Positions 15,303 through 61,793 of a DNA stretch of 64,000 nt are shown here, in pieces (the first letter of the stretch is position 1; the number at the start of each line of letters is the position of its first letter). The DNA comes from Chiloscyllium plagiosum (Eukaryota): positions 8,717,711 through 8,781,710 of the forward strand of contig NC_057742.1 in the NCBI RefSeq assembly GCF_004010195.1, written 5' to 3'. The notes under the pieces are model-generated. The model was not told the DNA's origin. It was given only the letters and a program-made list of their open reading frames with translations, and did no database searches. A program made the translations under genes and the position numbers.

Positions 15303-15510
15303 ATGTTTCAAGAAGTAACCAAGGAAATTGTGAATGAGATTGACCCTGATGGCAGATGGATTCCTACATCAAGCTTGGCTCAATCTTACTGTAAACCACT
15401 TCGTCTCATCCTGAAAAAGAAGCCATTCTTTCCCTTTTTTCAAGACAAATTCATCCCAATGTCTATCACTCTGACTGACATACTGCAGGACAGCAAAAAT
15501 TTAGATTTTG
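15303..15510 (+). CDS. Gasdermin copy 1 coding exon 1 (pore-forming N-terminal domain start)
   Basis: Acceptor ag at 15297-15298, ATG at 15303, MFQEVTKEIVNEIDPDG...KNLDF, donor gtaact at 15511, phase 1. Confidence 0.9.
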
Positions 15511-16014
15511 GTAACTTGTCCTTTTTATTTCAATTTGACTGTCACAGCCTGGGTTCTCTCGCTGGTGGTGGTGGTGGGGGTGGGGGGGGGGGGGGGGAAG
15601 GGGAGGGGGATAGTGGTGGGGGAGGTATTTGGATTCTACACCTTGATCACATTGGACCAGGAGCAATTTCTCTTTCTCACTCAGTTTCAGATGAGTCATT
15701 GAGCCAATGTGGTAGTGTCACATCTCTGAGCTATCACCACCAGCTCTCCGTCTAAATTTCATCCCAGGCCTATAGCTCTCTGAGTCCCATGCATGACAGA
15801 AATTTCCAGAACTAGAAGTCAATGCCATGACTGGGTATTGCGAATTGCTGTGAGTGAAACAGATGTGCAGCTTAGAGGGAACTTTAATCATCACAATGGC
15901 AAATAATAGCTCTTTTACTAAATCTCTTTTCATTCTTTCTGAAGGATTTATATAATTCTGTCAATGTAAATTAATGTGGCAGAATGGAACATCATCTCAT
16001 TTTCCTGTAACAAA

Positions 16015-58400: not shown

Positions 58401-61400
58401 AGGAAAGTGAGTAAATGCCCATCCAGGAGCAGAGCATTACTCATTACATCTAATCTTTGCTCTTTCAATCATGTTATTATTATTATTCAAAGCCTCAATT
58501 CGTAACTTGTGATACCTGCAAAACCAAAAATTACTTTTTTCCTTTGGGTGAATAGGAAAGGATGTCACTGGAGTATTATTTGGATTTTATGAACAATTTG
58601 TCTTTTGAAATATCAATCGTAATTTCTTTTCCCTTTTAGCAGCCTCGTGTTACCGGAAACTTGAGATTCCCCTCACAGAACTGACCAAACTGTCGAAGGA
58701 CGTGAGCCAACTATTCCTCAACACATTCCTTCAACTTCTTGGTAACAACGATAACCTTCCTGTTCTTGAGACAATGGTTCGTACTTCTCAATTCTAAATT
58801 TACTAATGGTGCTGGCAAACCACATTTCTGTGGGTTATCACTTCCCTTCTTTAGGTTGATCATGACAAGAGATTCGTTGCGGTAAATTGTGATCACCCAG
58901 TTTAGACAATTACGCTCCATTTATTCAAAACCTACACCATTCACTCTTCATACTCAATTCTGGCCAAGACCTGAATTCTACTCCCATTCCTGTCAACATC
59001 CTAAACTACTCGTGGTCACTAAGCTGAGAAAGCTCTGGATTGTGTTTAAAAAGCCAGTAGGTTCCTTCACCGAAATAGTAATTGGCTTTCGTAATCATCC
59101 CTGTCTCCCATTTGACCCATTTAATTCCTTACAGTGTGATTTTGAAACAAAGCAGATGACAGTAATTTATTTCTGGGCTTTTCTTCTTGTGAGATCAGAT
59201 GCAATACCGAAGGATCTCAGTTTCTGTCTGTGCCAGTGTTGATGAGCTGTGTAACTGCTAGTTACAGGTTCACTACTGTGTAAATTTAATACCTAATAGA
59301 GTAATGCTTCCTCCACTCTGTCCTTAGTTTTGTGTTTCAACCACAGTTTTGGAAGATTCTCCTATTGTCCCTACAAGATTTTCCATTCTCATCTATCTCT
59401 CGGAACATTCTCAGGGCTCATTGCCTGAGATTAATGACAAATTCTGATCAATTCCAGCATGTGGGATTTTTGTCAGTTCCACTGTCAAATTAATTTTACA
59501 CACATACCTTTAATATTCTGACAAAGGAGGTCATTGTTCATTAGGGATGACCGCAGTAGGACGAAATCACAATAGTTAGCAAAACTGGGGAAGTTTGATT
59601 CTGCATCAGTCAATACAGTATCTCATTAGAGAATGCAGGATGCCAGCATTTCAAGTCTGAATTTGGAAAGCATGCCAATTCCTGACATACTGTCCCTTGT
59701 CACTGTGTACTATTTCTGATGTTACCTCGTCCATGTCTCAACATTTTCAGCTTGACCAGATATGTGAAGGTTTCCAGCCCGACCTCCAAGTCCTGGAGCT
59801 GATGGAAGACGAGAATAGAGCCTGTGTGGAGAAACTGTTGGATCTGTTGGGAATTCGGAAGGTTGATCCACCGGGACAGCCCCTCACCTTGACACCCCAT
59901 CAGAATGAAGTCATAAAGACTGTAAACATTTTCATCCAGTCACTCAATGGTATATTGCTTTGACACGTACTGCCTTATCTATTCAGCTGTCTAGGTCGTC
60001 TGGCATTCCCTCTCTAAACCTCTCCTCCTCCCTCTCTTTCTTTTAGACTTTGCGAGGAACTACCTCTTTGACCAAATTTAGATGATCTCTCCTTCTTCTA
60101 ATATGCATTTCATAAATGCACATTGTATTCATTACTCCTAAATAGCTGATAGTAACCATTTCATCTCTGGGCCATTCATCATTGTGATTGGAAACATATT
60201 ACTCATTCCTTCACTGTCGTTGGGTCAAAATCATGGAGTTCCCTCCATAAGGGCATTGTGGGTCAACCTATAGCATATGGACTGCAGCAAGTCAAGAAGG
60301 CAGCTCCCCACCACCTTTTGAAGGGCTGATAAGGATGGACAATAAATTCTGGCTCAGCCAGAAACAGCCAGGTTTCATGAATGACTAAAAGAAAAATTAT
60401 TAGATCCAGTTGAGGGATTGTTAATGCTGCTGGATAATACTGCAATCTGTGCCATAACCTAACATTTCAAGCTAACCAGCATATATCATGAGTATTTAAA
60501 TGGAGACTTGTAATTAAGTTCTCTTGTTGAAAGCTGAGAGGGATAGTGTTTGAATTCAACATCAACCATTGACCATGTTGGTAATTCAGGGGAAGTAGAA
60601 GCATACAGGACAGACTGCAGAATCCTGGTGTGAACATCAGTATGTTGATTTCTGTTTAAGAATCTATTCTCACTGGCCTAGTTGTTATTATTGAATGAAC
60701 GATGCCATTATAACCTGGTTACAGCATTAAATATCTATGGACTCTCATTGTGCATTAATACTTTGCTTTGGCATGAAAGCATTGCTAGTTTGTACTGACA
60801 GTCTCAGACTGTCCAGTTTGAACTGTCTCTGGAGTGAACTGAGACAAGATGTGATGCAGGACGATGACTAACAATGATCAGTTTGATATGTCATGGAGCC
60901 AAAATCCAGGACAGTATCAAATCTGGTTTAACCTTAAGAATCCTAATAAACAGGAATTGAAGTAGGCTGTTCGGCCCTCCACCCTGTCCCACCATTCATT
61001 AGGATCATGGCTAAACTCTTTCTACTCTTTCCCCATAACCCTTGATTCCCCTCCAGATCAGGAATAGAAAATGGTTTAGAATATGCTGAGCGCTGAAGTA
61101 GGCTGTTCGGCCCCTCCACCCTGTCCCACCATTCATTAGGATCATGGCTAAACTCTTTCTTACTCTTTCCCCATAACCCTTGATTCCCCTCCAGATCAGG
61201 AATAGAAAATGGTTTAGAATATGCTGAGCGCTTCTTTAAACTTTTTCTAATTATCTGACCCCATTTTAAATAAGCAGAGAGCAGTAATCTTACCCCAACT
61301 TGATCCCTAAACTTTTAAATGCTTAATCATAGAAACAGAAAGAGAGACACATACATATATCCACATTTATGTGAAATTCTTCCTGAAATAGGATATTTAG

Positions 61401-61793
61401 CCAATTATACAGGAGCCGAGCAAGGATATCAGCTAGCTAGCACACACAAAATGCAGCGACCACTATCAAACTGATCTTGAATGATACACAAACTCCCCCT
61501 CAGCTCTATGAAAACAAATAGGATTAAAACAGCATAAACTAACTGCAACTTAACCTCAAGTAAAACTCTTCTGCCTTTTCTATGGCATGTGCTAATTTGC
61601 TGTTCATCCATCAACTCTCTGAAGTGCTTTTGATCAATTTACTTTATTAAAGATCTTCAATGTGCAATGCAATGGATCCATCATGGTAAGGTGCTCTGAA
61701 TTATTCTGTTTCCTTTCAGAACTGAATCCTGACACTTTACCCCTCCTGGCTACTTGTGTTGAGATGAAGATTACATCAAGACAACTAAAGCTG
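43197..61793 (+). CDS. GSDM: Gasdermin-family gene copy 2, intact over 8 visible exons (370 codons); last exon lies beyond the window
   Basis: Exons 43197-43410, 49881-50067, 50671-50821, 56696-56804, 57807-57845, 58640-58776, 59751-59949, 61720-61793 splice in frame without stops (1110 nt). MFHKVTQKIVKEIDPYG...FKPLYIIKRKKRTLFF..KYIPTSITLADIL and AGTTIAFKV are gasdermin N-terminal-domain motifs. Confidence 0.88.
46303..46954. mobile_element. Non-autonomous Tc1/mariner-pogo (Tigger-like) DNA transposon
   Basis: TIRs cagaggaacctc(g/a)attatcc at both ends, TA TSD (46301-46302, 46955-46956), internal ggataat repeats. Confidence 0.82.
47225..47555 (+). mobile_element. HE1/V-SINE
   Basis: Same core and (atcta)n tail. 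Confidence 0.85.
48640..49790. mobile_element. Rex1/Babar-like LINE fragments
   Basis: KAMGPDSVP..LRSCVDQL..VFTNIFNL on plus; endonuclease/linker remnants on minus. Confidence 0.65.
49881..50067 (+). CDS. Gasdermin copy 2 exon 2
   Basis: T-tract ctag|GA TTG CAA...GAC AG|gtac; GLQSSKFCNYG...VEMKKRVISEMMLLEATKDR. Confidence 0.9.
50671..50821 (+). CDS. Gasdermin copy 2 exon 3 (GC donor)
   Basis: ttcag|G AAG ATT GAC...ATG AAG|gcgagt; KIDRGHHFVKQLRNNIFYIILEVVET...; phase 0 matches exon 4. Confidence 0.87.
52314..53738 (+). mobile_element. Penelope-like element with ~300-bp inverted terminal repeats
   Basis: 52354-52654 is the reverse complement of ~53417-53737; GIY-YIG remnant (FKQPPNLKQ, CKTC, YIGET); 12-bp TSD aagaatc(a/t)tacc. 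Confidence 0.82.
53651..53685 (+). ncRNA. Minimal hammerhead ribozyme motif, cleavage triplet mutated
   Basis: CAC-CTGATGA-a-GGAGC-atc-GCTCC-GAAA-GCGA-GTG; the opposite terminal repeat retains GAAAGCTAGTG. Confidence 0.55.
54447..54767 (+). mobile_element. HE1/V-SINE
   Basis: Same core and tail. Confidence 0.85.
55231..55260 (+). ncRNA. Minimal hammerhead ribozyme motif
   Basis: CTGATGAAGGGCTCATGCCCGAAACGTCGA. Confidence 0.55.
56696..56804 (+). CDS. Gasdermin copy 2 exon 4
   Basis: ttag|GCT AAA GGA...GTG G|gtatgt; AKGNVDAFLKQNLSFCAGTTIAFKVSKLRITEDDTV. Confidence 0.88.
57807..57845 (+). CDS. Gasdermin copy 2 exon 5 (short linker exon, GLVPTYAPLRCLL)
   Basis: Strong pyrimidine tract, tttcag|...TTA G|gtaaac; 39 nt, phase 1-1. 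Confidence 0.7.
58640..58776 (+). CDS. Gasdermin copy 2 exon 6
   Basis: ttttag|CA GCC...ATG|gttcgt; ASCYRKLEIPLTELTKLSKDVSQLFLNTFLQLLGNNDNLPVLETM; NAGNAG acceptor. Confidence 0.87.
59751..59949 (+). CDS. Gasdermin copy 2 exon 7
   Basis: ttttcag|CTT GAC CAG...AAT G|gtatat; 199 nt. Confidence 0.9.
60957..61231. repeat. Near-perfect ~137-bp tandem duplication
   Basis: gaagtaggctgttcggccc...aatatgctgagcgc occurs twice in succession. Confidence 0.8.
61720..61793 (+). CDS. Gasdermin copy 2 exon 8
   Basis: tttcag|AA CTG AAT...CTG|gtaaga; ELNPDTLPLLATCVEMKITSRQLKL; 74 nt. Confidence 0.88.

Follow-up and report, generated by a model that had tools for sequence, protein, structure and literature searches.

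The functionally studied gasdermin of cartilaginous fish, GSDMA/B (Wang 2023, PMC10155998; Wei 2026, bioRxiv 10.64898/2026.07.03.736391), is cleaved by caspase-1 at D241 and D288, and its N241 fragment is lytic (bioRxiv 10.64898/2026.07.03.736391). Billman 2024 (PMC10948149) described a 'GSDMEc Shark' clade, treated in the section considered here as one shark gasdermin not divided from the caspase-site-bearing GSDMA/B, and placed shark GSDMA-family gasdermins with the proteins in which no caspase motif is apparent. Teleost GSDMEc (Yuan 2022, PMC9355259) also belongs to the GSDMA branch, occurs in tandem copies, evolves fast and is reported to lack an evident caspase motif. Mammalian GSDMA and GSDMB are members of the same branch opened by non-caspase proteases, SpeB and granzyme A, respectively (PMC10948149). 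Here we analysed a 64,000-nucleotide (nt) stretch of the genome of the shark Chiloscyllium plagiosum (G000:C33:8717711-8781710, hereafter the window), which lies in a gasdermin cluster spanning 8.69-8.79 Mb on contig C33 and carries two head-to-tail gasdermin genes on the + strand, called copy 1 and copy 2. As judged from sequence comparisons, these genes belong to a second, old and multiplied elasmobranch gasdermin lineage of the GSDMA-D branch, apart from GSDMA/B. The two lineages share their tree branch, intron phases, contig and two-domain organisation. They differ in that the GSDMA/B ortholog of this genome, P0035, lies by LRRC3, carries Asp241 and has a 63-nt linker exon, whereas the window lineage neighbours MED1, occurs in several copies and, in galeomorph sharks, has no such Asp.

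The 24 proteins retrieved by a profile search all carry shark or ray names, each species contributing 1-3 full-length models. A FastTree phylogeny of 126 rows, drawn from proteins of 400-560 amino acids plus two shorter ones, was followed by a more careful phylogeny of 58 rows, chosen so as to represent the groups; outgroup labels (GSDME, GSDMEc, tetrapod GSDMA, mammalian A-D, invertebrate) were assigned by motifs and tree position, with named anchors. The 12 rows of the window lineage formed one group (100/100) within the GSDMA branch (100/99; 99 in the FastTree of 126 rows), opposite GSDME, PJVK and the invertebrate gasdermins. An approximately unbiased (AU) test rejected a grouping of the lineage with GSDME (p-AU 0.008). 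An earlier reading of the window made from the letters alone (the sequence-only reading) had placed the pair nearer to GSDMA/B than to GSDME, and both the tree and the AU test agree with it: the proteins match the gasdermin profile and do not nest in GSDME or PJVK with GSDME synteny. Its supporting argument, the resemblance of a KRKKRTLFF segment to GSDMA, turned out not to be diagnostic, as the gene at the GSDMA-type position reads YRKTNGPFWRKPKY and these positions vary inside the lineage.

The same reading had proposed a GSDMA/B-type lineage, which is right for the GSDMA-D branch and wrong for identity with the 'shark GSDMA/B' of the literature. The latter formed a separate group of 7 rows (100/100), including P0035 together with XP_007907597.1 from C. 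milii and XP_020385528.1 from R. typus, the two accessions given for this branch in cartilaginous fish by PMC10155998. Identity of the window genes with the published GSDMA/B was rejected because both published proteins group with P0035, which is encoded at another locus; the window genes form a separate, paralogous lineage. The order of the groups inside the GSDMA branch was unsupported (79/76, 77/51, 94/78). The AU test gave p-AU 0.373 for the two shark lineages as sisters (log-likelihood 1.2 lower), 0.070 for the window lineage and teleost GSDMEc as one clade, and 0.187 for the lineage and reptile GSDMB-like proteins as one clade, the last with 2 reptile rows only; none of these three groupings was rejected. 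Since a holocephalan protein groups with P0035, the two shark lineages parted before chimaeras diverged from the elasmobranchs, about 400 million years ago. Among the best 150 of the 354 matches of a cluster-representative search, most of them without a species label, none could be recognised as a window-lineage protein from a holocephalan.

Part of this lineage is already in print. Row seq1068 of the Billman 2024 alignment equals copy 2 over the ~95 N-terminal residues compared, and we infer that it falls within the 'GSDMEc Shark' clade (PMC10948149). The suspicion that shark GSDMA/B-like genes might have been reported was thus correct for shark GSDMA-family genes in general (PMC10155998, PMC10948149, bioRxiv 10.64898/2026.07.03.736391), and novelty is limited because copy 2 stands in a published alignment. 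Our search of the literature on cartilaginous-fish gasdermins and GSDMEc, which left subscription papers mostly outside, found no paper dividing two shark GSDMA-branch lineages. What is new here is the second lineage, apart from GSDMA/B, and the disappearance of the caspase Asp from galeomorph sharks.

The copy 2 gene is intact and spliced, with a frame that stays open across nine exons. These are coding exon 1 (43197..43410, 214 nt from the ATG), exon 2 (49881..50067, 187 nt), exon 3 (50671..50821, 151 nt), exon 4 (56696..56804, 109 nt), which holds the end of the pore-forming domain core, the linker exon 5 (57807..57845, 39 nt), which encodes no Asp and is highly variable among paralogs, exon 6 (58640..58776, 137 nt), exon 7 (59751..59949, 199 nt) and exon 8 (61720..61793, 74 nt), all on the + strand, and exon 9 at L008:1810-2079, ~1.8 kb past the window end, with an AATAAA at L008:2447. 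The intron phases (1,2,0,1,1,0,1,0) follow the vertebrate gasdermin pattern (S2 Table, PMC10155998); being common to GSDME and GSDMA/B, this pattern has no power to separate them. Intron 3 is of GC-AG type (donor at 50822-50823), with a junction that agrees with the RefSeq protein P0001, while the donor is GG in copy 1 and in a relic duplicate described below, and GT in shark GSDMA/B. A tandem acceptor 3 nt into exon 6 yields an isoform one residue shorter (P0008 vs P0001). The two isoforms are NCBI XP_043530800.1 (P0008) and XP_043530801.1 (P0001), 'uncharacterized LOC122539802' of C. plagiosum, an identity that bears out the suspected shark origin of the DNA.

Profile and structure comparisons identified the copy 2 product as a two-domain gasdermin. 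P0001 scored 87.1 bits against Pfam Gasdermin (PF04598, cut-off 25) and 57.6 bits against Gasdermin_C (PF17708, cut-off 36.3), and exon 1 alone passed the Gasdermin cut-off of 25 bits in both copies (41.9 bits in copy 1, 45.8 in copy 2), so that the profile search proposed by the sequence-only reading came out in its favour. The closest sequence match in the PDB was mouse GSDMA3 (E 8.5e-18; plain GSDME, 3.4e-8). An AlphaFold model computed from 20 alignment rows reached a predicted local distance difference test score (pLDDT) of 72.3 and a predicted template modelling score (pTM) of 0.64, and its best Foldseek matches were GSDMD and GSDMA3 (E ~6e-16). A search of the ESM Atlas returned generic gasdermin clusters only. 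The basic residues of helix 1 and of the beta1-beta2 loop are kept in copy 2, and the N-terminal motifs are conserved over 22 rows of the lineage.

Expression of copy 2 was assessed by comparing four runs with its last exon (X21, X22, X23 and X24), X23 being taken as RNA by guess. In X23, a contig of 1,181 nt joins exon 8 to exon 9: the match begins at the exon 9 acceptor, and the overhanging end of the contig corresponds to the end of exon 8 (window 61763). Through exon 8 the contig measures 1,126 nt, and the coding length of exons 1-8 is 1,110 nt, in keeping with a model that has no extra linker exon, although this part of the contig is unaligned. A second X23 contig stops at 2466, just past the AATAAA. 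One read pair of X21 fell in the 3' untranslated region of copy 2; X22 and X24 gave no match on the last exon, a blank that was not used as evidence. As a separate observation, the last exon is identical to that of the C. punctatum ortholog at 69 of 88 positions, compared to 92-98% in the other exons (P0001 vs P0007, P0005), a divergence that suggests exon swapping or gene conversion among paralogs.

The linker exon had been singled out as tiny, and it is: 39 and 42 nt in copies 2 and 1, whereas the linker exon of shark GSDMA/B has 63 nt and the candidate one of shark GSDME 171 nt. Measured between two anchors, the linker has a median length of 51.5 residues in the 22 lineage rows (range 36-99); the medians of shark GSDMA/B, GSDMEc and GSDME are 58, 65.5 and 83, respectively. 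Teleost GSDMEc differs further from the window lineage in forming a separate tree group and in the hydrophobic-x-x-Asp-Gly site carried by many GSDMEc-labelled rows. At the extremes of the range, P0048 apparently lacks the linker exon (36 residues between the anchors) and P0024 has a 99-residue linker; both may be annotation artefacts. Asp residues were scored at index 22-37 after the A[FY]K anchor, copy 1 not being counted. All ten shark GSDMA/B proteins have an Asp there, at index 32-35 (residue 241 in C. milii and in P0035, whose linker reads WLHAD). None of the 11 galeomorph members of the window lineage, copy 2 included, has one, while the single sawshark member does, as do seven of nine ray members, at index 30-32 in the register of Asp241. 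Just upstream of the scored interval, two galeomorph paralogs carry WDD. The alignment of these linkers suggests that the caspase Asp was lost in galeomorph sharks. The linker is also where paralogs part: in four hemiscylliid paralog pairs, 0-5 of 13 linker-exon residues are identical, while exon 7 is identical at 65-66 of 66. In ortholog pairs, the linker-exon identities were 12/13, 12/12 and 5/13.

Copy 1 is broken in this assembly. Its exons, on the + strand, are coding exon 1 (15303..15510, 208 nt from the ATG), exon 2 (20941..21127, 187 nt), exon 3 (21720..21870, 151 nt), exon 4 (24567..24673, 107 nt), the linker exon 5 (26214..26255, 42 nt), which matches the C. punctatum model P0196, exon 6 (26917..27059, 143 nt), which starts the C-terminal domain and gives a weak Gasdermin_C match, exon 7 (28486..28684, 199 nt), with 76% identity to copy 2 exon 7, exon 8 (30967..31040, 74 nt) and the last coding exon 9 (32670..32942, 273 nt including the stop), which equals the end of P0050. 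The gene pair, its positions and the exon sizes had all been given correctly by the sequence-only reading, which overlooked the ninth coding exon of each gene; the matching phases that it claimed fail at exon 4, whose 107 nt, compared to 109 nt in copy 2, shift the frame. In exon 4, an A run carries a frameshift and a TAA stands in frame at 24640-24642, and exon 3 is followed by a non-canonical GG donor (AAG|GGGAGT, 21871-21872, compared to AAG|GCGAGT in copy 2), past which read-through meets a stop after 19 further codons. RefSeq breaks the gene at this intron into two models in both Chiloscyllium species (P0051/P0050 and P0198/P0196). The other 8 of 9 exons remain open.

A relic third copy, a duplicate of copy 1, lies upstream of the window (L020:3981-7140 and L019:996-1200, window -26019 to -18800). 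It has a frameshift in exon 1, a stop in exon 3, a truncated exon 9 and the same GG donor as copy 1; its exons 4-8 were not found. The two differ by 9-16% in non-coding DNA, and over 237 codons the proportions of non-synonymous and synonymous differences were pN 0.141 and pS 0.131. The copy 1 branch itself showed 24 non-synonymous and 5 synonymous changes, with no synonymous excess, and no purifying selection on copy 1 since the duplication was seen in this test, which is weak owing to the distant outgroup. We compared exon 4 of copy 1 with four DNA-type sequencing runs, two independent runs of organism A plus organisms B and C. In the two runs of organism A the exon measures 107 and 108 nt. 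The frame-breaking length is therefore genuine in C. plagiosum, and assembly error does not account for all the lesions, although it may account for the stop, which may be either a private allele or an error. Copy 1 is likely a decaying pseudogene.

With modest confidence, we propose that the window covers part of a tandem array of genes from a second gasdermin lineage of sharks and rays on the GSDMA-D branch, and that within this array copy 2 is an intact and likely autoinhibited pore-former opened by a non-caspase protease at its short, Asp-free linker, and copy 1 is broken and likely decaying. By analogy with the family, the C-terminal domain of copy 2 would hold the pore domain shut until the linker is cut, and the freed N-terminal domain, with its conserved basic residues, would form pores. 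The copy 2 linker lacks Asp and contains Tyr, Leu, Arg and Lys, which makes a protease other than a caspase the likeliest activator, in line with the opening of mammalian GSDMA and GSDMB. Ray members may still be opened by caspases. Most tentatively, the variable linkers could serve as baits for different host serine or microbial proteases; tandem copies with one scaffold and differing linkers would fit such a diversification.

Several observations weigh against parts of this proposal. RNA support for copy 2 is sparse, as X23 is RNA only by guess, X21 contributes 2 reads and the linker junctions are uncovered. A description of the lineage as linker-less gasdermins would be too strong, with linkers only ~7 residues shorter than those of shark GSDMA/B, and so would the absence of Asp from the whole family: with seven of nine ray proteins retaining one, the loss of the caspase site is not family-wide. 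Two of the ortholog pairs above keep the linker nearly unchanged (12/13, 12/12), and linkers are variable in all gasdermins. As for copy 1, its exon 4 stop is absent from all four sequencing runs, organisms B and C carry an open 109-nt exon 4, and in C. punctatum the frames of P0198 and P0196 are uninterrupted, so that copy 1 may have been a working gene until recently. Taken further, copy 1 could be functional in the genus through a non-canonical or nearby donor and be broken only polymorphically in C. plagiosum, which we consider doubtful. In favour of this, copy 1 retains 8 open exons even though it shares its GG donor with the relic, from which it differs by 9-16% in non-coding DNA, and an AG 10 nt into exon 4 could, as read from the sequence, restore the frame of the 107-nt form. 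If the homologous acceptor is used, however, both runs of organism A keep a frame-breaking length, and neither the RefSeq division of the gene in two species nor the substitutions on the copy 1 branch speak for a maintained protein. No RNA run covering exon 4 of copy 1 was found, and this was not used as evidence.

As for copy 2 and its relatives, a different function is also conceivable. The lineage could consist of non-lytic or regulatory gasdermins, decoys or modulators of GSDMA/B or GSDME pores, comparable to the isoforms of human GSDMB that lack exon 6 or to those teleost GSDMEc fragments that do not cause pyroptosis. We consider this unlikely. The short linker without Asp would suit such a role, as would the absence from copy 2 of the basic stretch that follows the last N-terminal strand of elasmobranch GSDMA/B (e.g. 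PKEKN). There are precedents: exon 6 of GSDMB bears a motif required for pyroptosis (PMC13305819), and snakehead GSDMEc fragments modulate GSDMEa (PMC12766251). C. milii GSDMA/B, however, likewise lacks the basic stretch and its N241 is nevertheless lytic (bioRxiv 10.64898/2026.07.03.736391); the N-terminal motifs of the lineage are kept over all 22 rows, and the N-terminal domain of swordtail GSDMEc is lytic (PMC11929941).

Less likely still is that the whole lineage remains caspase-activated, in rays through the retained Asp and in galeomorphs through a non-standard site (DTLD or DTVD at the exon 4-5 junction) or an exosite-guided cut. The ray Asp does stand in the Asp241 register, and several paralogs have an Asp at that junction. 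Copy 2, however, has a Gly there besides its Asp-free linker; the residue at the junction falls, by alignment, on the final strand of the pore domain (residues 227-229 in the model), so that a cut would probably clip the fold; and the ray Asp is followed by Lys, Gln or Pro, residues less favoured by caspases. Two further identities were rejected: GSDME by the tree, the AU test, a GSDME-type gene elsewhere (C5), the linker medians, the GSDME linker being long and DxxD-bearing, and the lack of Asp in copy 2, and PJVK by the tree, the presence of a Gasdermin_C domain and a PJVK-type gene on C7.

The proposed local tandem expansion was confirmed by the number of models per species and by the remains found in the cluster. 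The sequence-only reading saw the gene pair and overlooked the relic copy, spare last exons on both sides and the GSDMA/B gene of the same contig. The spare last exons, which stand without the rest of a gene, are located upstream at L018:703-849 and downstream at L009:1312-1575, ~9.5 kb past the last exon of copy 2; the latter comes with an acceptor, a stop and an AATAAA of its own and might serve as an alternative last exon. Two unplaced 1-kb contigs hold further pieces. L068 (G000:C8571) carries exon 7 of a copy-2-type gene with 89% identity over 606 nt, and because its intron is only 89% identical to that of copy 2, it likely represents one further paralog. L069 (G000:C15394) carries an uninterrupted exon 9, 99% identical to the relic copy over 301 nt. 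The gasdermin copy number in the assembly is therefore a lower bound. Repeats were also noted in the window: decayed fragments resembling the reverse transcriptase of long interspersed nuclear elements in introns of both copies (22747-23760 and 62400-63600), and, in intron 4 of copy 1, two halves resembling short interspersed nuclear elements that form a head-to-head inverted repeat (24898-25102 and ~24780-25400) within a local tandem duplication.

When the genome was searched with Pfam, four first exons of gasdermin genes were detected in addition to that of copy 2: those of the GSDME-type gene on C5, the PJVK-type gene on C7, copy 1, and a gene at C33:10.017 Mb. GSDMA/B was seen at one locus in this genome, G000:C33:9980326-10017383, where P0035 is encoded in nine exons ~1.2 Mb from the window genes (L003, L028-L031); its protein shares 30% identity with copy 2. 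The P0035 gene is flanked by a RasGEF gene and by a gene named LRRC3B by NCBI, which lies 94 kb upstream in the same orientation. In human, LRRC3C lies directly upstream of GSDMA, which makes the P0035 locus a GSDMA-type position. The window cluster is head to head with MED1 (Pfam Med1), and the next recognised genes, ~170 kb downstream, encode a C2H2 protein with three fingers and a protein of the peptidase C69 family, and we take them to be SP6 and SCRN2. Human 17q served as reference for the comparison of neighbours. The families next to tetrapod GSDMA/B (ORMDL, Rpn3_C, Med1, Sp38, BPS) are on the same shark chromosome in a rearranged order, with ORMDL at 12.02 Mb, Rpn3_C at 12.07 Mb, Sp38 at 0.58 Mb and BPS at 0.90 Mb. 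Human genes are ordered ZPBP2-GSDMB-ORMDL3; the cluster at 8.69-8.79 Mb does not follow this pattern, and it differs from reptile GSDMB-like and GSDMB genes in not being placed between ZPBP-type and ORMDL genes. The synteny comparison suggested by the sequence-only reading thus gave a mixed answer: GSDMA/B-type neighbour families share the chromosome, and neither a ZPBP/ORMDL placement nor direct OSBPL adjacency was seen.

Both the C5 and the C7 gene follow an OSBP-family gene at a distance of 40-55 kb, which is ~55 kb for the GSDME-type gene on C5. On C33, an OSBP-family gene (G000:C33:9584265-9601869) also lies in the interval that separates the cluster and P0035, 0.8 Mb away from the former. 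OSBP genes beside GSDME and PJVK and between the C33 loci are consistent with an origin of the GSDMA branch in a genome-doubling block. A bolder scenario, which we offer as a long shot, is that the GSDMA family had already split in the jawed-vertebrate ancestor into an LRRC3-side caspase-1 executor and a cluster akin to reptile GSDMB-like or teleost GSDMEc. The shark array would then be a set of protease tripwires with near-identical pore and repressor domains and swapped linker exons, each for a different microbial or granule protease.

Two distinct genes would explain why shark GSDMA-family gasdermins were listed without a caspase motif by Billman 2024 (PMC10948149) and found to be cleaved by caspase-1 at Asp241 by Wei 2026 (bioRxiv 10.64898/2026.07.03.736391). 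The functional data on an 'ancestral GSDMA/B' would then cover one of two chondrichthyan lineages. With its natural linker variants on a constant scaffold, the cluster offers a direct route to the question of how gasdermins passed from caspase to non-caspase activation.

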